Positions 1,949 through 63,564 of a stretch of DNA of 64,000 nt are shown piece by piece (within the stretch, counting starts at the first letter, position 1; each line of letters starts with the position of its first letter). The position numbers were made by a program, and so were the translations under genes. The stretch is from Ostreococcus lucimarinus (taxonomy: Eukaryota). The notes beneath the pieces are model-generated. The model was not told the DNA's origin. It did no database searches and saw only the letters and a list, made by a program, of their open reading frames with translations. The stretch lies in the NCBI GenBank assembly GCA_000092065.1, contig CP000596.1; one strand, 5' to 3'.

Positions 1949-4040
1949 TTACGAATTCATGCTATCCGCGAGGGCGTCGAAGGCGTTGCGAGCGACGACG
2001 GGGGCGGGTTCGGCGAGCTTGGGCGCGGGCGCGGCGCGCTCGCGAGGCGCGGGCGCCGATTTCTCGGCGGCGGCGGGCTTGTCCTTGGGCGCGGGTGTGT
2101 CCTTGGACTTGCCGTCCTTGCCGTCCTTGGGCTCTGGTCTGCCTTTGGCGAAGCGAAATTTGTCGTCGAGCTCGAGGGAGAGCTTGGTGAGCTCGAGTTC
2201 GAGGTCTTTGACGTCGTCGCCGGCGTCCTTGGCGGCTTGAATCTTCTCCTTGAGTTCCTTCTCCTCTTTGAACTCCTTGCGCTTGACCGCGCCGACGGAG
2301 CGCTTGAGATCTTCGGCTTGCCAATCGCGACCGGCTTCCTTGAGCGCCTCTTCGCGCGGGCGAGCGCCGCCGAAGAGCGAGCTCTTCGCCGCGGCGCCGA
2401 CGGGGGCGTCGGTGGAACGCTTTTGCAAGTTCAGTTTGGGCCTCGCGGCGCGCTCCTCGGGAGTCGCTTCGCGGAGTTCTTCCTCTTTGCGCGGGGCGAA
2501 CGAAGACTTGCGGCCCCATCTGTCGCCATCGGAATCTTTCGGTTCGTCGTATTGCTTGCGCTCGGTACGTTCGGGGTTTTCTTCCGAGCGAATCGGAATC
2601 GCTTCGCGCGGCTTGTCCTCGACGTACTTGACGTCTACGGGCTTAGCGCCACCGAAGAGCGAGCTTGAGCCCGCGCTCGCGCTCGTAGGAGCGGCTTCCG
2701 AGCGTGGTTTGAGCTGAAGCTTCGGGCGATCGCCTCGCGGAGCGTAACCATCATCCGACGGCGGCTCGGCGGCGGCGGTGCGAGAACGCAAAGAGCCCCA
2801 GTCGCGGTCGCGTTCTTCGCGCGGAGGTCGATCGTCGTATCGCGAATCACGCTCCGGTAACTGTTTTCTGTCTCTACTCCAGCTGTCGCTTTCATCCGCG
2901 CGCGACGGTCCGAGATCCTCACGCGGCGGCCGGTCTGCGAAATCGCCAAATCCCGGTCTGCGCTCCTCGCGGTCGCCGTAGCGATCGTCGCCGCCGCCGT
3001 AACGGTCGCCACCTCTCTCGGCGTAACGGTCGCCAAATCCTGTTGCACGCCTGTCGCCGCCGTAACGATCATCTTGCGGCGGCGCGCGACGGTCCGCGCC
3101 CCAGTTAGAGCTCGTATCCGCGCGAGAAGGACCTTGCTCTTCGCGAACCTCTCTGTCGCCATATTCACCGTCGCGGCGGTCGTCTCGATCGTACCGACCC
3201 GGACGACGCTCATCACTGCGATCACCGCCGCCGTAACGATCACCACCGCCGTAACGATCACCACCGCCGTAACGATCACCGCCTTGGTTGAATCCACCAC
3301 CGAGACCGACGCCTCCGTCGTCGTCCGGTCGCGAGCTCGGCCCACTCGGCAGCACGACGTCGTCGCCGCGTCCTCGACCGAACGCCGATCCACCGACTCG
3401 TCCCGGAGGCGCGTACGACGACCCACCCGACGCACCCGCGAATTCTGCGAGCGAAAGTTTCACCCCTTTCGTCTTCTTCTTCGGTTCCTTCACCTTGGCC
3501 GCCGCCCCGAGCGACGGAAACGCTCCGCTCGCGTCCGCTTCCGCCGCCTCCCCGCCGAGCGACGGGAACGCCTGCGCCGGCACCGCTAACGATTCCACTC
3601 CATCGTTTCCTTCCTTCGTCTGCGTGAATCGCGAAAGCGCGCGTCGTTCCGTCAGTGCGCGCTCGTTTTCGTCGAGTTTAGCTTTTAAAAATCGAGCCCA
3701 CGTCCGAGCCGCGATCTCCGCGCGAACCGTCTCGACCGCGCCGCGCCCTCGATCGCGCGCCTCGTCGCCCCGGCGTCTCGCGAACGATGCGCGCGCAATT
3801 TCTCCATCATCTCGCGCGCGAATCGCGCGCGCGCGCGCGTCGCGCGCGTCGCGGGCGACGCGCACGCGTCGCCCCACGGCGCCGCCATCGGTCGGGCGTC
3901 GTTCGATGCATTTCGCGCCGCCGACGCGCGCGCGACGCGTCGCGCGCGTCCGCGACGCGCGACGCGCGTCGTGAGGATTTTTCAATCGCGCGCTACGATC
4001 GTACCTGTGCGCTCCACGCGCTGGTCGTGCCCCAAGCCAT
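1949..4040 (-). CDS. EIF4B: Plant-type translation initiation factor eIF4B, two exons: complement(join(1949..3619,4005..4040)).
   Basis: The large exon has twin FPSL motifs followed by KKKTKGVKLSLAEF (Arabidopsis eIF4B has SFPSLKEA...KKKKMTLSEF). It also has DRYGGG repeats and a K/E-rich C-terminus. The mini exon MAWGTTSAWSAQ resembles plant eIF4B MSKPWGGIGAWA. GTACGA donor; the 385-nt intron has a CTGACGG branch 30 nt before CACGCAG|ACG. Confidence 0.75.
3620..4004 (-). other. Inferred spliceosomal intron of EIF4B (385 nt).
   Basis: GTACGA donor directly after a 12-codon first exon. CTGACGG branch point, then a CAG acceptor that restores the ORF frame at TKEGNDGVESL. Confidence 0.6.
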
Positions 4041-57231: not shown

Positions 57232-58059
57232 TCACTTCCCGTCGATCGGGGCGATGACGGAGTCGTCGAAGACGGGTAAATCTGGGAGTCGGATCGTCGG
57301 CACGACGGCTTCGTCTTCGTCCGCGGGCAACGCGTACGGCGTCTCTTCGGCGCACATGTCGACGAAGAGTTTGTGCCAACGCGCGTCGGCGGTGATTTCG
57401 GGATGGAACGACGTCGCGAGTAACTTTCCTTGTCTCACCGCGACGACGACTTCGTTCAAGCCCTCGTCCGCGGTCCCGACGAGTTTTTGTTTCTTCGCCT
57501 CCGGGAGCGCGTACTTCGCGAGCACCTCGACGTCGGGCCCGCACGACGTGATGGCGGGCGCGCGAATGAACACCGCCCGGAACGGCGCGTCGTCGTCGCC
57601 GTTCGACGTCGTCGCCGTCCACGGAATCATGCATTCAAACGAATCGATCTGTGACCCGAAAAAGTTTCTATTCACCCCGACGTCCAAGCCGCCGAGAAGC
57701 TCTTGTCCGCCTTCCTTGCCCCCTCGCTCGAGGCGTTCGGCTAAGAAAATCAACCCCGCGCACGTCCCCCACACGCACCTCCCGCTCGCCTGGAACGCTC
57801 GCAACGGTTCGAACAGCCCGAACCTTCGCGCGATGTTCGCCATCGTCGTCGACTCCCCCCCCGGAATGATTAAACCTCGCACGTCGCGCAGGTGACACCC
57901 CTTGCGCACCTCCACCGCGCGCGCGCGCGGGTGCGCCTTGCGCACGAGCGCGGCGTGCTCGCGGAACGAGCCCTGAATCGCGAGCACGCCGATCAAGACG
58001 TCGCGCGCGTCGTCGTCGTCGGCATCCGTCATGGCGATGTGCTCCCACGACCCGCTCAT
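57232..58059 (-). CDS. PDX2: Pyridoxal 5'-phosphate synthase glutaminase subunit PdxT/PDX2.
   Basis: Class I glutamine amidotransferase with the PdxT-specific motifs GVLAIQGSFREH and IIPGGESTTM, catalytic Cys in GTCAG, and FHPE. Confidence 0.85.
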   Translation of the reverse strand: MSGSWEHIAMTDADDDDARDVLIGVLAIQGSFREHAALVRKAHPRARAVEVRKGCHLRDVRGLIIPGGESTTMANIARRFGLFEPLRAFQASGRCVWGTCAGLIFLAERLERGGKEGGQELLGGLDVGVNRNFFGSQIDSFECMIPWTATTSNGDDDAPFRAVFIRAPAITSCGPDVEVLAKYALPEAKKQKLVGTADEGLNEVVVAVRQGKLLATSFHPEITADARWHKLFVDMCAEETPYALPADEDEAVVPTIRLPDLPVFDDSVIAPIDGK

Positions 58060-58194
58060 GCGCGACGCGCGATGCCGGCGTCGAGGGCGGCGGTTCGACG
58101 TCACGCGCGACGCGGGCTCGATCGGCGAGACCGCGACGACACGGACACGGATTTTTTGTACGCTCTGGACGCCGGAAGCGCGATGGAGTGATGG

Positions 58195-60297
58195 ATGGAT
58201 GTCGTCGCGGTGTTGCGCGCGTCCGCGTCACACCGCCGCGTTCGAGCGCCGCGTCGCGCGCGTCGTCGTCGCAGACGTCGTCGTCGTCGTCGCATGCCGT
58301 GGCGCGCCGGCGCGCCGCGGTGCTTCGGCCGCCGCGCGCGCGCGTCGTCGAGAGATATCTTCGGCGATGTCGACGCGAACGGGACGTCGCGCAAATCGTC
58401 GACGTCGACGTCGACGGGATCGGGGGGAACGGTGATCGTGTACGGGCTCAGCGCGGATCCACCGACGGACGTCGGCGGCCACGGGAGCGTGGTGCGGGCG
58501 TTACGGGCGTGCGAAGGCGTGGACGAGGTGCGCGTGACGCCGGTGTACGCGCACGCGTACGCGGAGAAGAGACTCGCGACGACGTCGTACGAGGCGCGAG
58601 TGGAGATGTGCGCGCTGGCGTTCGAGGGAGCGGTGATGGACAGCGACGCTGACGTCGGTAAACACGCGACGCTGGCGCCCGCGGGATCGAGAGGCGTCTC
58701 CGCGAGCGACGACGACGCGGGCGAGACGAGCGCGGCGGGGACGAAGGCGGCGCGCTTGGTCGTGTCTCGGGCAGAATACAGAGCTTCGCTCGAGCACAGA
58801 GGAGGCTTGGCGAACACCAAACCTGGATCCACGGCGGCATTGATGGACGTGCTTCGGCGCGAGCAACCGGATACGACTTTCATTATTTGCGTCGGCGAGG
58901 ACGCGTTTGACGATTTAATCAGCGGGAAGTGGTTCAGAGGTGAAGACTTGTTGCGCGACTACGCGTTCATTGTCGCACCACGACACGGATATGAATCGCG
59001 TCGTGAGCGAAATTTTGGCGCGAGTGGACACGTCACGCGAGACATTCGCAGCGTCTCCTGGTTGGAGGCGCACGTCACCGCGCCGGCGGGCGCGCCGGTG
59101 TCCTCGACCATGATTCGACGCGCGTTAGAGCAGAGGCAAGAGTGCGAGACTGCGGAGCAATTGTTGCAAGATTGCGCTCCCACTCGAGCGCTTCATCCCG
59201 ACGTTTTGCAGTACATCGTCGACAAAGAGCTCTACGTCGCCGATGAGTTCCAAGACGCCGTCGGCGACGACCTGGACTCAGATGCGGACGCCGACGCGCC
59301 GTCCACGCCGACGAAAGATTTGGGGTATTTAGGTCGAAAGTTTGCGGGCATGACAACGGAGCCGAGTGCGTATTTTAGCCGAGACAAGTCGTTCACCGAC
59401 GCAAAGGACAGGCACGGCTTGCTCACCGAATCGCGCCCGCTCATCGGCAAGGAAGTCGACGTACACGAGCACATCAAAGCCGCGGTTCCTCGCGACGAAT
59501 TTACGTCGTTCAAGGCGTTGCCGTACGAGCTCTTCGATCGCGCGATACGCACCGAGCTTCAGAACCATCCGCCCGGCAAATGGAATGCTGATAAAGCAAA
59601 AAAGTACGCGTTCATGTCGGCGGAACGCGTGCGCGTCGTGTTGCAGTGGCGCAAGGACAACAAGGTTGACGAATTGCTCACTGGTGGCATATTGCCATAT
59701 TCAGACTGCATGTACACGAATTGGCCCGCGTTCGTGCACGGTCAAGACTCGTACGGACACCCCGTGTTGTGTGAGCATCCGAGCGCCGTGAAGCCAGACG
59801 CTTTGAAGGCGCGCATGACCGTCGACGAAATAATGCGGCACAGGATTCAAGTGATGGAGACGTTGGAGTTCATGAAATCGACCTCCCAGCGCGCGCACAC
59901 GGTCTACAAGCACATCTGCGTGATTGACTTGGAAGGGGTCACGATGTCGCTGTTCACGGGTGACGTGAAATCGTTTCTGACCGAGTTTGTCAAGCTTTTG
60001 ACGCATCGCTACACCGATTCGTTGCACCTGATGTATCTCGTGAACACGCCGGTGGTCTTCCGCGTCATGTGGGCGATGCTAATGCCGTTACTGTCGACGA
60101 CGACAAAGTCGAAAATTTTCATGTTTGGCGTAGGACCCAACCAAAGTAAGAAACTCGCAAAGCAGCTCGCACGACACGGGATAGGGCAGGAATGCGTTCC
60201 GCCGTGCGCGGGTGGAACGCACAAAGGAACGAGGATGGACGAATACATTCGAGAAGCTGTTACGCTGCACAAGCGTTTGAACGAGCACGTCAAGTAG
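58195..60297 (+). CDS. Single 700-aa ORF: NadD-like nicotinate/nicotinamide mononucleotide adenylyltransferase domain fused to a C-terminal CRAL-TRIO (Sec14-like) lipid-binding domain.
   Basis: The N-terminal half has a nucleotidyltransferase signature region (IVYGLSADPPTDVGGH) and the NadD C-terminal motif SSTMIRRAL...LQYIVDKELY. An acidic linker of about 70 aa follows. Then a CRAL-TRIO N-domain (KALPYELFDRAIRTEL...KAKKYAFMSAERVRVVLQWRKDNKVDELL) and a lipid-binding domain. There is no in-frame stop between the halves. Confidence 0.65.
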   Translation: MDVVAVLRASASHRRVRAPRRARRRRRRRRRRRMPWRAGAPRCFGRRARASSRDIFGDVDANGTSRKSSTSTSTGSGGTVIVYGLSADPPTDVGGHGSVVRALRACEGVDEVRVTPVYAHAYAEKRLATTSYEARVEMCALAFEGAVMDSDADVGKHATLAPAGSRGVSASDDDAGETSAAGTKAARLVVSRAEYRASLEHRGGLANTKPGSTAALMDVLRREQPDTTFIICVGEDAFDDLISGKWFRGEDLLRDYAFIVAPRHGYESRRERNFGASGHVTRDIRSVSWLEAHVTAPAGAPVSSTMIRRALEQRQECETAEQLLQDCAPTRALHPDVLQYIVDKELYVADEFQDAVGDDLDSDADADAPSTPTKDLGYLGRKFAGMTTEPSAYFSRDKSFTDAKDRHGLLTESRPLIGKEVDVHEHIKAAVPRDEFTSFKALPYELFDRAIRTELQNHPPGKWNADKAKKYAFMSAERVRVVLQWRKDNKVDELLTGGILPYSDCMYTNWPAFVHGQDSYGHPVLCEHPSAVKPDALKARMTVDEIMRHRIQVMETLEFMKSTSQRAHTVYKHICVIDLEGVTMSLFTGDVKSFLTEFVKLLTHRYTDSLHLMYLVNTPVVFRVMWAMLMPLLSTTTKSKIFMFGVGPNQSKKLAKQLARHGIGQECVPPCAGGTHKGTRMDEYIREAVTLHKRLNEHVK

Positions 60298-60391
60298 TAC
60301 TAGCGACGTAGCGCCGAATCACGTAATCGTGATTCGGTTGTAACAACAACATCGGGACACATGAGCACAAATCATCTCATCAGTTTCACCG

Positions 60392-61588
60392 CTATGTTCC
60401 TATTCGCCTACGCACTAAATCGGGACCGCGAGCGCGCAATTCGTGTACGTCCTTCACGCCGAGCAAACCCATCGCGCGTTTCGTCTCGCTCGTGAGTATT
60501 TCAAACGCTTTGTTTACGCCCGCGCCTTCGCCCGCGGCGAGACCGTACAAGTACGCCTTACCCACCCCCACGGCATTCGCTCCGAGAGCGAGAGCCTTGA
60601 CGACATCGACGCCACGCATGATGCCACCGTCGTAAATCACCTCCGCTTCCTCGCCGACGGCTTCGCGGATGGACGACAAGACGTCAATGGGCGCGACGGC
60701 GCTCTCCAACTGTCGAGCGCCGTGCGACGTCACCCACACCGCGTCGTACCCAATATCTCGAGCGCGCACCGCGTCGTCGGGACGCAGAATCCCTTTCATC
60801 GCCATCGGACCATCCCACTGCGCGCGAAACCACTCGGCGTCTTTCCAATCAAACGCAGCGTCGAACTGTTTTGTCGCAAATTCTGCGATTGGCAGCGCGT
60901 CTCTGAGCAAACCGTCGCGCTTCAAATCGCGAATGAGCGCGTACTCGATGCGCTGTGATATGAGATATTCAAGCGTCCACCTCGGCGCCGCGAGAGCTGC
61001 GAGAGTTGTCCGTAAAGAGTGTTTGGGCGGTACACTGAATGAGTTTCGCACGTCTCGCTCCCGATTTCCGAACCACGTCAAGTCCGTCGTCAACGCGACT
61101 GACGAGAATCCAGCCTCCTTGGCGCTCGCCAAGACGTCTCGCATCAGCTCTCGATCTTTCCACACGTACACCTGGAACATTTTCCGATCGGCTTTCAACG
61201 TCGCGACGCCCTCCGCGATGTCTCGCGGAGAGCGGGTGCCGAGAGTGCTCAACGCAAATACTCTGTTGCTCGTCGAGCACGCCTCGGCGGTCGCCAACTC
61301 GCCGCGCCGCGGTGCCCATAACGCGTGACCGGCGGTCGGCGATGGGAAAATGCACTCCGTGTTCGTGTGTCCTAAAAACGACGTCTCGAGCGACACGTCG
61401 TCGACGCCGCGACACGTCGACGGGTGAAACTCTAATTCATCGAACGCCGCGCTCGCGCGACGCAGCGCCTTCTCATCGTCCGCACCGCCATCTAAATAGT
61501 CGAACGCGAACGAAGGTTGGACCTTGCGCGCGAGCGCGCGCAAGTCTCGCGCGTTCAAGCACGCGCGCAGCGCTTTGGACGACGCCAT
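60392..61588 (-). CDS. GOX: FMN-dependent (S)-2-hydroxy-acid oxidase/dehydrogenase (glycolate oxidase / L-lactate dehydrogenase LldD family).
   Basis: FAFDYLDGGADDE substrate-entry motif, catalytic TSHGARQLE (SNHGARQLD) and the C-terminal GANAVGVGKAYLYGLA. Start at MASSKAL (61588). The ORF extends to 61909. Confidence 0.85.
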   Translation of the reverse strand: MASSKALRACLNARDLRALARKVQPSFAFDYLDGGADDEKALRRASAAFDELEFHPSTCRGVDDVSLETSFLGHTNTECIFPSPTAGHALWAPRRGELATAEACSTSNRVFALSTLGTRSPRDIAEGVATLKADRKMFQVYVWKDRELMRDVLASAKEAGFSSVALTTDLTWFGNRERDVRNSFSVPPKHSLRTTLAALAAPRWTLEYLISQRIEYALIRDLKRDGLLRDALPIAEFATKQFDAAFDWKDAEWFRAQWDGPMAMKGILRPDDAVRARDIGYDAVWVTSHGARQLESAVAPIDVLSSIREAVGEEAEVIYDGGIMRGVDVVKALALGANAVGVGKAYLYGLAAGEGAGVNKAFEILTSETKRAMGLLGVKDVHELRARGPDLVRRRIGT

Positions 61589-61632
61589 GCGACGGCGTGT
61601 GTCGCCAGTGTTCGCCTCGCTTCGAGCGACGC

Positions 61633-63564
61633 ATGCGCGCCGACGCCCGCGACGCCGGCGACGACGACGCGTCGGCGACGTCTTCCAAAGGTGCGGGGGG
61701 CGAACTCGAGCTCGATGGCGCGGGAGGAGCACTGGAAGACTTGAGAACGAAGCTGCACGAGGCCGAACGCGCGGCGCGCGAGAGCGAGCTCGTGGCTCGG
61801 TCGAAGGTTTCAAAGGCGTTCGAGCGGTTGAAGGACGCCGACGCCGCGGCGAACGAGGAACGCGAGCGAGCGGCAAAGCTCGAGCGCGAGCTCGAGCGAG
61901 TGAAGGCATCGTGCGAAGAAACGAGCGAAGCGCTTCAAGCGGCGAACATAAAGGTGAGCGTACTCACCGCTCAAGTCGCGGCTCTCGCCGACGAACCGAC
62001 GTCGCCGTCCAACGCCAAGGCGAAGAAAGGAAAGGCCAAGACAAAGTCGAAGCCTTCAGACGCGACTGTTGATGTGGCGATGGTGAATTCAATGCTCACC
62101 TCGGCGAATGAAAAGCTGAAGCACGAAACCGAAGCGCACGAAGCGTCAAAGCGCGCGACGGCGTCGCTCGAAGAAGAAATCAAGCGTCTGAAACCGCTCG
62201 CGCAGATGACGGAGACGATGAGAGCAGATCTTACGTGTGCAGTCGCGGAAGCGAATGAGGCGAAATCAAACGCTGAAAATTGGAAAAAGCTGGTAGACTC
62301 TAAAGAACAATCGTCGGGTGTGAACGAAAGAAAGCTTCGCGAGGCGTTGACGCGACTCAACACGGAATTGCACGAGGCGAAGGAAAAAGTTCGCGCGCTC
62401 GAAGTCGCCAACGAAGACGCTATGCGCACCGGCACGATGTTGCAGCAGCAAGCCGTGGAAGCTGGCGAGCGCATCACTCGAAGTCTCCGAAGTCGTCTCG
62501 ACGAGGTAAACGATGAAATGAGCGAACTGAAGAGGAGAGAAGCCGTAGCCGCGGCTGAAGGCCACGCGGCGTCCGAGGCGATTCGCCGAGCCGCAAAATT
62601 TGAAGAGGAACTCAAGCGTGCGAAACATCGCCTCGCGGACGCAGAAATGGCTCTCGTAGACAGTGAGTCAGCTGTCAAGGCGTTACAGTTTCAGCTCGAT
62701 TTGAGCGGAGAATCCACGTATCGCGACGACTCGAGCGTGCGACGCGAAACGCGTTTGCGAAACGAGCTCGAGGAGACGATCGCTCACGCCGCAAAATCGA
62801 GCGCTGAGATTGAACGCCTCGGCGATATCGTTAAAAAGTTAGATGACGAGCTCACGACGGCTCGCGAAGTCGTAAAACGGCTCACTGAAGAAAACAACTC
62901 GCTCATCAATCGCGTCGACGCGGCGGAAAAGAAGAACGAGATTCATTCCCTCCTCGGCGCGACGAGCGCGAAGCACGAAGACTTGGAATTGCTCCAAACG
63001 ACGGCGAGTAAAGTGGACTTGATCGTGGCTGAAAATCAGCGATTAGCGTCTGAATGTAAGGCGGCGCACACCGCGCTGAAGACCGCAGAGGACACGGCGA
63101 GGACGGCGAAGTCGGCGCTGGCGAGCGAACGCGAAGAATTCGAAGTGTGGAGGCGCAAGGCGAGGGAAATAATCGATTCCAAAGACCGCGAGATTGATCG
63201 TATACGCGCCCGCGGAGATGATAAGCAACCGCCTCCCAAGTCGACGCCGACAGCAATGCTCAAGCGCAAAGGCGGCGCCGAGGACGACGCTTCGTACATC
63301 AAGGCGGTGTTACTGCAATTCCTCGGCGAAGAGGAATGGGAGGTGCAGCAAAACTTGCTCCCCACCGTTATCGCGCTGTGTGGCGGTACATCGGAAGATT
63401 TGCGGAAAATTCAAGCGAATCGCGCTAATTTAGAACCGACGTTCGTGCACTCGACCGAAGTAGCAATCTCGAAATCTCTGGAGCAGGGCGCGATGACTGT
63501 CGCGTCGACGGCGAATTCTTTCACCGAGAGCATCGGTTTGGGGCGATTTTTTTCGAGCGCGTGA
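61633..63564 (+). CDS. Coiled-coil golgin with a C-terminal GRIP domain.
   Basis: About 600 aa of heptad-rich coiled coil. It ends in a GRIP-domain consensus YIKAVLLQFLGEEEWEVQQNLLPTV (compare [FY]LKNVLLQF[LM]). It is the last gene before the telomere. Confidence 0.7.
   Translation: MRADARDAGDDDASATSSKGAGGELELDGAGGALEDLRTKLHEAERAARESELVARSKVSKAFERLKDADAAANEERERAAKLERELERVKASCEETSEALQAANIKVSVLTAQVAALADEPTSPSNAKAKKGKAKTKSKPSDATVDVAMVNSMLTSANEKLKHETEAHEASKRATASLEEEIKRLKPLAQMTETMRADLTCAVAEANEAKSNAENWKKLVDSKEQSSGVNERKLREALTRLNTELHEAKEKVRALEVANEDAMRTGTMLQQQAVEAGERITRSLRSRLDEVNDEMSELKRREAVAAAEGHAASEAIRRAAKFEEELKRAKHRLADAEMALVDSESAVKALQFQLDLSGESTYRDDSSVRRETRLRNELEETIAHAAKSSAEIERLGDIVKKLDDELTTAREVVKRLTEENNSLINRVDAAEKKNEIHSLLGATSAKHEDLELLQTTASKVDLIVAENQRLASECKAAHTALKTAEDTARTAKSALASEREEFEVWRRKAREIIDSKDREIDRIRARGDDKQPPPKSTPTAMLKRKGGAEDDASYIKAVLLQFLGEEEWEVQQNLLPTVIALCGGTSEDLRKIQANRANLEPTFVHSTEVAISKSLEQGAMTVASTANSFTESIGLGRFFSSA

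Follow-up and report, generated by a model that had tools for sequence, protein, structure and literature searches.

A predicted single-gene fusion of a NadD-type nucleotidyltransferase and a Sec14/CRAL-TRIO domain in Ostreococcus lucimarinus

A 64,000-nt stretch of contig CP000596.1 of Ostreococcus lucimarinus (GenBank assembly GCA_000092065.1), hereafter the window, contains a long open reading frame (ORF) at 58195..60297 (+) that appears to encode two unrelated modules in a row. Does this ORF represent one gene, what are its two modules, and what might their combination serve? The maximal ORF is 2103 nt long and encodes 700 amino acids (aa), with its sole stop codon at the very end (TAG at 60295-60297). 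In a previous sequence-only reading of the window, the ORF was interpreted as a fusion of a NadD-type adenylyltransferase for nicotinamide mononucleotide (NMN) or nicotinic acid mononucleotide (NaMN) with a Sec14/CRAL-TRIO lipid-binding domain. We are nearly certain that the locus is a single fused gene of this kind. All features described below lie on the same (+) strand unless another strand is given.

Conservation of the fused gene

The homologue search with the fusion protein against 5.8 billion proteins returned 12 clusters ranging from 99% to 44% identity, each of which covers about 86-100% of the query and hence both halves. In the Ostreococcus tauri cluster, OUS45525.1 (638 aa) is a full fusion, and XP_022840505.1 (534 aa) is partial yet spans the junction. 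The most divergent cluster contains an ORF from an MMETSP transcriptome (P0081) that is flagged complete, is 733 aa long and shows 43% identity to the window protein over both halves; at the level of transcripts, this ORF speaks for a fused mRNA in a related organism. A protein identical to the product of 58195..60297 is present on two independent assemblies.

For comparison at the DNA level, we used the locus of a distant relative (L001) and a further 14 loci that were recovered when metagenomes were scanned with the Sec14 half. Four motifs served to score integrity of the junction: S.[ND]PPT...GH and SST.[IVM]R for the NadD-type half, LQN.PPGK and TKSKI for the Sec14 half. All four motifs lie in one uninterrupted frame in 12/12 loci that are not cut by a contig end; the survey of fused versus split orthologues proposed in the sequence-only reading thus came out in favor of the fusion. 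The remaining loci comprise two truncated by the contig start and one, L019, with only a C-terminal fragment. The linker between the modules varies in length between orthologues by whole codons only, and both halves are similarly conserved, with scores of 0.69-0.81 (here and below, segment conservation was computed across the non-redundant fusion orthologues).

The composition of the ORF is that of a single coding region. A stop-free run of 700 codons is expected by chance with P ~3e-11 at the local base composition. The in-frame GC content of third codon positions (GC3) stays within 0.65-0.90 along the whole ORF, including the domain junction, where both other forward frames hold stops; the overall GC content is 0.53-0.62 across the related loci. 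In such GC-rich DNA, the ~71 inter-domain codons would be open by chance with P ~0.09, which is not significant. Thus, openness of the linker alone proves nothing, and the evidence for the fusion is its conservation. We predict one intronless gene encoding a two-module protein of about 667-700 aa, and the one-ORF fusion originally claimed is borne out by the 12 homologue clusters, the 12 untruncated loci and the transcript ORF, all of which cover both halves.

Neither the metagenome scan nor a word-indexed search with the C-terminal half, which returned one protein, P0287, cut by a contig end, yielded this Sec14 subtype as a free-standing protein. The L019 locus was considered as a split gene and rejected. 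Its region 2953-3300 encodes just 95 C-terminal residues, which share 73% identity with aa 601-695 of the fusion, and lies directly after an unrelated 386-aa ORF; judged from this arrangement, L019 holds the relic of a gene or is a chimeric contig or assembly.

The annotation of the O. tauri orthologue (P0044, P0045, P0046) is inconsistent. The NCBI models XP_003084028.2 (206 aa) and XP_022840505.1 (534 aa) are partial and overlapping models on the same contig, and a second O. tauri strain has the full 638-aa model OUS45525.1. This inconsistency hides the architecture of the gene.

The NadD-type N-terminal half

The NadD-type nucleotidyltransferase domain occupies aa 78-347 (58426..59235), as delimited by Pfam, NCBIfam, Foldseek and a family profile. 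Its core is conserved at 0.73 (aa 78-150) and 0.69 (aa 187-347), and the two parts are separated by a variable insert at aa 151-186 (58645..58752), with a conservation of 0.29 and a predicted local distance difference test (pLDDT) score <50. By curated family thresholds, the N-terminal half classifies as a divergent relative of NadD and not as an equivalog.

The AlphaFold (AF2) models of the two halves were built from alignments 13 and 8 sequences deep and have a pLDDT of 52.5 (N-terminal half) and 60.5 (C-terminal half), which makes them usable for fold assignment only. In the N-terminal model, pLDDT of the core is 70-88. The top 50 PDB matches of this model in Foldseek are all NadD or the NMNAT of P. 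falciparum (PfNMNAT), with target TM-scores of 0.63-0.80 and E-values from 1.6e-6 to 6e-4, at about 15-20% identity to the solved structures.

The family to which this domain belongs was delineated by an exhaustive HMMER search with an N-half profile against 1.84 billion representative proteins. It gave 1228 matches at E<=1e-3 and 296 at E<=1e-10, nearly all of them free-standing proteins of 200-350 aa. A word-indexed search with the same half, which returned fragments and two free-standing 461-aa proteins only, says little on the taxonomic range. One named member is A0A7S3DQZ2 from the diatom Entomoneis paludosa, described in UniRef as 'Nicotinamide-nucleotide adenylyltransferase'. An alignment of 19 family members revealed invariant G, S, P, T, G and H in the signature G-x-S-x-[ND]-P-P-T-x-x-G-G-H, a conserved G.D...GKW, an invariant SS in the SxxxxR region, and a C-terminal V..Y....Y. 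When the profile of this alignment was compared with PDB sequences, 26/26 matches (E<=0.1) were NaMN/NMN adenylyltransferases, including PfNMNAT (2.8e-13), NadD of E. faecium (9.8e-12), B. subtilis (1e-10) and P. aeruginosa (9e-10), and human NMNAT1 and NMNAT3 (1e-4 to 5e-3).

NMNATs are defined by two motifs for binding of adenosine triphosphate (ATP), T/HxxH and SxxxxR (PMC13191266). The first corresponds to GLSADPPTDVGGH at aa 84-96 (58444..58482), a variant with a 2-residue insertion in which G84, S86, P89, T91, G95 and H96 are invariant in the 19 members; Thr and His of T91-D-V-G-G-H96 are four residues apart, not two, and the insertion is common to all members aligned. Replacement of the first His in this motif (TDVGGH) had been read from the sequence as a possible catalytic defect. 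The replacement itself is correct, whereas the defect is not supported: the Thr is invariant in the family, and HMMER aligns T91 to the Thr of TYAH in PfNMNAT, an enzyme crystallised with nicotinic acid adenine dinucleotide (NaAD), so that a Thr at the first position does not mark a damaged motif. The second motif, S303-S-T-M-I-R308 (59101..59118), aligns to VSSTMIRE of B. subtilis NadD, and S303, S304, T305 and R308 are invariant among the fusion orthologues. Alignment to characterised NMNATs, suggested by the same reading, therefore leaves the 2-residue insertion as the oddity of this protein, with T91 matched and SxxxxR intact. Also conserved is the Trp of G.D..KW, a residue that in NadD stacks against the pyridine ring, and the C-terminal part carries the NadD-like P.VL.YI...LY. 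We consider the N-terminal half to be, with good probability, an active NaMN/NMN adenylyltransferase.

The Sec14 C-terminal half

Both sequence comparison and the structural model identify the C-terminal half as a Sec14 domain that is complete, the helical N-lobe included. The N-lobe spans aa 419-508 (59449..59718; conservation 0.72); its helices have pLDDT of 72-93 in the C-half model, and from aa 476 it aligns to the N-lobe of yeast Sec14p. The CRAL-TRIO lipid-binding lobe, aa 509-658 (59719..60168), is the most conserved segment (0.81) and passes the threshold of Pfam PF00650 (CRAL_TRIO; E=1.4e-20, 74.1 bits against a cutoff of 22.6). It is followed by a conserved C-terminal tail, aa 659-700 (60169..60294; conservation 0.62), with invariant P669, G673, G674, G678, R680 and D682, which ends in a predicted helix (pLDDT 66-85). 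The matches among PDB sequences include AtSFH5-Sec14 (5e-13) and yeast Sec14p (1e-11). In the Foldseek search with the C-half model, the top 37 matches all belong to the Sec14 family, including Sec14p, AtSFH5 with phosphatidic acid, alpha-TTP and SPF. Pfam detected no nodulin or GOLD partner domain; only CRAL_TRIO and CTP_transf_like were found, the partner being N-terminal.

The inter-domain region

The sequence-only reading had described an acidic linker of about 70 aa without an in-frame stop. The frame is indeed open, but the acidic and variable part is only 29 aa long (aa 348-376; 59236..59322), with a conservation of 0.36, 10 D/E against 1 K/R, and whole-codon indels. The next 42 aa (aa 377-418; 59323..59448) form a conserved segment in front of the Sec14 domain. 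Its conservation (0.78) matches that of the folded domains, and it is predicted to be disordered, with pLDDT of about 25-35 in both models. The segment follows the pattern GY.G..RKF...EPSAYFSRDKSF.D.KD..GLL.ESRPL.GKEV, in which Y393, F394, S395, D402, D405, L409, L410, E412, S413 and R414 are invariant. We recognised no known motif in aa 377-418; an FFAT-like candidate, AYFSRD, was judged by eye not to fit the FFAT consensus and was dropped. The segment may be a docking or regulatory element.

The same region contains Met386 (59350-59352, in MTTEPS), which had been proposed as a possible start of the Sec14 module on its own, being its lone internal Met. No other Met lies between aa 307 and 473; the Sec14 module as such holds many. 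In more distant orthologues, the position is occupied by L, V, A or S. Since Met386 is not conserved, a separate translation start of the Sec14 module at this codon appears unlikely.

Free-standing relatives and their partners

All Sec14 fusions recovered by the N-half HMMER search collapse into one 50%-identity representative, P0011, and no Sec14 domain was found in the other long matches scanned with Pfam. Partners of the NadD-like domain in these proteins are instead (i) queuine tRNA-ribosyltransferase (TGT; P0104, 731 aa, 13 cluster members), (ii) thioredoxin (P0131 and P0217), and (iii) a GNAT acetyltransferase (P0157). The Sec14 fusion thus seems confined to a single narrow clade of marine green algae that comprises Ostreococcus and its close relatives.

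Hydrophobic segments were searched for in 148 representatives of the family (P0093-P0240), such a segment being defined as a 19-residue window with a Kyte-Doolittle mean >=1.8. A strongly hydrophobic 19-mer was found in 22 of the 148, with 14 of these 22 located within 25 residues of the C-terminus and 5 at the N-terminus. The 14 C-terminal segments follow the catalytic domain and resemble tail anchors, as in P0136, P0177, P0184, P0192 and P0234. In both thioredoxin fusions, a segment resembling a transmembrane helix lies directly after the catalytic domain. Judged from these sequences, membrane attachment seems to be a recurrent trait of this NadD-like family.

Proposed function and alternative explanations

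The explanation that we favor overall, with a probability of roughly 0.6, is a single gene for a NadD-type enzyme that is localised by its Sec14 domain or coupled through it to a ligand. In this scheme, the first module, a divergent NadD-fold member of a mostly free-standing subfamily, would move adenosine monophosphate (AMP) from ATP to NaMN or NMN, yielding NaAD or nicotinamide adenine dinucleotide (NAD). The second module, a Sec14 domain with a non-canonical pocket, would bind a ligand, probably other than phosphatidylcholine (PtdCho). The Sec14 module would then either recruit the enzyme to a specific membrane or link its activity to a lipophilic ligand, and the result would be localised synthesis of NAD. 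Sec14 is suggested as the route of this clade to the membrane by the tail-anchor-like ends in relatives and by the palmitoyl anchor of mammalian NMNAT2. That synthesis of NaAD or NAD is membrane-addressed, and possibly ligand-gated, is a tentative proposal to which we assign odds of even at best. In a bolder version, which we regard as rather doubtful, the protein would be a lipid-gated or membrane-addressed NAD synthase in which a Sec14 pocket with a specific ligand other than PtdCho, or the membrane, controls the NadD module via the 42-aa segment, and it would perhaps be the sole NMNAT of these minimal genomes; in other protists, tail anchors may serve the same purpose.

Several results weigh against the favored explanation. 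The N-terminal half passes Pfam PF01467 (CTP_transf_like, aa 109-309) only marginally, with 22 bits against a cutoff of 21, and its best NCBIfam match, the NadD equivalog TIGR00482, stays at 48.1 bits, below the cutoff of 112.45. The insertion in T/HxxH is absent from the solved NadD and PfNMNAT sequences that were aligned. Both AlphaFold models are modest and uninformative on contacts between the domains. Anchor-like segments occur in just ~15% of the family representatives, a share given without a control family, and the closest free-standing relatives (P0093-P0100) have none.

The lipid-binding residues of the Sec14 half also deviate from those of known transfer proteins. We mapped the barcode residues defined for Sec14p (PMC4945147) through the HMMER alignment to Sec14p. 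Of the PtdCho barcode, 0/5 residues are kept: Y111, Y122, Y151, S173 and T175 correspond to V514, L525, M554, H573 and C575. Of the phosphatidylinositol (PtdIns) barcode, 2/4 residues are kept, T236 as T637 and K239 as K640, both invariant; the other two, R65 and K66, fall outside the HMMER alignment, and an ungapped extension gives A468 and K469, which are not conserved. Algal Sec14-like proteins have degenerate barcodes, and a Chlamydomonas example is without PtdIns and PtdCho transfer activity (PMC4945147). Because the PtdCho barcode is lost and algal barcodes are degenerate, the ligand of the Sec14 half is probably not PtdCho.

As the first alternative, the nucleotidyltransferase half may have been repurposed: it would act on another substrate, possibly presented by the Sec14 pocket, or serve as a regulatory or chaperone module that binds ATP or NAD, and would not synthesise NAD. 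The 2-residue insertion in T/HxxH and the score far under the NadD equivalog cutoff fit this explanation, and fusion of the family to the unrelated partners TGT, thioredoxin and GNAT suggests versatile use of the domain. The His-to-Lys spacing in PVY.H.[FY]..K also appears unlike that of the PPHK motif of NadD. Moonlighting is known for NMNATs, and Pof1 combines a low catalytic activity with roles outside the canonical one (PMC13191266, PMC12470169). The structural and sequence comparisons point the other way, as all 26 PDB sequence matches and all top 50 fold matches are NaMN/NMN adenylyltransferases and none is a PPAT, cytidylyltransferase or FMNAT. Moreover, the Trp of G.D..KW and the SxxxxR motif are conserved, and the motif residues are invariant in the 19 aligned members of a family of >1000 representatives, which would imply a conserved catalytic function. 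We consider repurposing unlikely, though it deserves to be kept in mind.

The second alternative is a variant of the favored explanation, in which the Sec14 module is mainly an allosteric sensor whose ligand switches the adenylyltransferase, possibly via the 42-aa segment. A segment that is conserved like the domains and yet predicted disordered would fit a role in docking or regulation, the pocket of the Sec14 module departs from the canonical one, and 'sensing' of a second ligand by Sec14 is an established concept (PMC4945147). On the other hand, the models, being of low confidence, indicate no contact between the domains, and the tail-anchor-like relatives favor localisation as the selected trait. 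The present data do not separate sensing from simple tethering, and we judge a mainly sensory role to be quite improbable.

Finally, it is extremely unlikely that the locus yields two separate proteins, through an internal promoter with a start at Met386, internal polyadenylation or an unrecognised intron, the ORF being a read-through of adjacent genes: the position of Met386 just upstream of the Sec14 module, the unsurprising openness of the linker and the partial, overlapping O. tauri models would agree with it, but Met386 is not conserved within 42 aa that are highly conserved in frame, the frame is unbroken in all 12 untruncated loci, their indels being of whole codons, a complete transcript ORF covers both halves in the 43%-identical relative, the 534-aa O. 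tauri model crosses the junction, the ORF contains no TGTAA, and the searches gave no free-standing protein with this Sec14 subtype, P0287 being cut by the contig end and L019 being a fragment.

Relation to known systems

Comparison of the fusion protein with characterised systems shows a combination of familiar parts. With bacterial NadD (TIGR00482/PF01467) and PfNMNAT (PDB 5LLT), the algal protein shares the fold, SxxxxR, the Trp of G.D..KW and the C-terminal P.VL.YI..gLY, and in TYAH of PfNMNAT, as in the algal protein, Thr is first in the motif. It differs from both by the T-x4-H spacing, the acidic variable insert at aa 151-186, the Sec14 fusion and a score below the equivalog cutoff. The free-standing PPT..GGH proteins of protists, such as A0A7S3DQZ2, have the same signature motifs and about 30-34% identity to the N-terminal half; they are 200-350 aa long and lack Sec14. 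With yeast Sec14p and Arabidopsis SFH5, the algal protein has PF00650 and the fold in common, and it keeps the equivalents of T236 and K239 as well as TKSKI. Unlike Sec14p, it has the PtdCho barcode replaced, Ser in place of D233, and the conserved 42-aa segment and a nucleotidyltransferase domain in front.

Plant Sec14-nodulin and Sec14-GOLD proteins (patellins) likewise carry Sec14 and a second module in one polypeptide. Further multi-domain classes are macro-Sec14 (GDAP2), Sec14-PTP (PTPN9) and Sec14-RhoGEF/GAP. In contrast to all these classes, the partner in the algal protein is an enzyme of the NAD biosynthesis type and is N-terminal to Sec14. In documented multi-domain cases, the Sec14 module confers membrane binding (PMC7674337). 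The survey of Sec14 proteins in the green lineage from the same source, in which Chlamydomonas and Volvox were the only chlorophytes sampled, reported Sec14-only proteins for them (PMC7674337).

A functional analogue is mammalian NMNAT2, which is palmitoylated, membrane-anchored and associated with the Golgi and vesicles, and thus held at membranes through an isoform-specific non-catalytic element (PMC12470169). NMNAT2 differs in that it belongs to the eukaryotic-type NMNAT lineage and carries a lipid anchor on two cysteines, whereas the algal protein is of the NadD type and has a lipid-binding domain, its membrane association being only proposed.

Full-text literature searches found nothing relevant on NMNAT or NadD combined with Sec14, CRAL-TRIO or Ostreococcus, in agreement with the earlier statement that no NadD-Sec14 fusion had been described. 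One paper on NadD fusions, PMC3351149, deals with NadD-iojap proteins of bacteria only. In databases, the fusion proteins are labelled 'hypothetical' or 'Rossmann-like fold', or are automatically named NaMN adenylyltransferase. Hence the sequences themselves were already public, but their architecture seems to have drawn no comment so far.

Where cells make NAD is an active question, and mammals use three NMNAT isoforms, one of them lipid-anchored. If the favored explanation is true, the fusion would offer a compact and tractable case in which NAD synthesis is addressed to a membrane or coupled to a lipid, in organisms that rank among the smallest free-living eukaryotes. As transformation of O. 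tauri is feasible, the proposal would be testable. The bolder, lipid-gated or membrane-addressed version would, if true, provide the first direct physical link of a lipid-transfer-type domain to NAD biosynthesis. The fusion adds a new class of partner for multi-domain Sec14 proteins, contradicts the working generalisation that green algae have Sec14-only proteins, and brings to notice the PPT..GGH proteins of protists, a large NadD-like subfamily that is uncharacterised. If it merely localises a housekeeping enzyme, the wider impact would be modest.

Translation start, flanking genes and 3' region

The first 77 residues (58195..58425) form an Arg/Ser-rich, non-conserved N-terminal extension (conservation 0.19, pLDDT <50) that is short or absent in most orthologues. 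An organelle transit peptide was considered for aa 1-77 and dropped, as the region is not conserved among orthologues. Codons 23-33, just before Met34, form a tract of 11 Arg encoded by CGN/AGA codons.

The true translation start is probably Met34 (58294..58296), which would give a 667-aa product, and the annotated-position start at 58195 probably lies too far upstream. We infer this from three observations: (i) codons 1-33 have an atypical, non-coding-like composition, with GC3 below the GC content of both first and second codon positions (GC1 and GC2), (ii) a two-codon upstream ORF, ATG-GAG-TGA, at 58181 and an out-of-frame ATG at 58191 directly precede the first ATG, and (iii) other gene calls in the same 90% cluster (P0013) begin at MPWRAG.

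Upstream of the fusion gene lies a divergent gene for an SNO/Pdx2-type glutaminase, 57232..58104 (-), and downstream a convergent gene for a dehydrogenase dependent on flavin mononucleotide (FMN_dh), 60392..61909 (-). Both genes are also found near the orthologue in the 44%-identical relative (L001, 2888-4846) in a rearranged order. This partial microsynteny indicates that the two loci are orthologous.

The 94-bp gap between the fusion gene and the convergent FMN_dh gene contains, at 60314..60343 and with no strand assigned, a perfect 10-bp hairpin (CCGAATCACG TAAT CGTGATTCGG) followed directly by TGTAA. This TGTAA, 42 nt past the stop codon, is the only one in 57901-60500, and none lies inside the ORF. 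TGTAA (UGUAA) is a poly(A) signal of chlorophytes, and the copy at 60314-60343 may act in 3'-end formation; its position behind the stop codon lends the single gene some slight support. Together, the hairpin and TGTAA may constitute a 3'-end element shared by the fusion gene and the FMN_dh gene.

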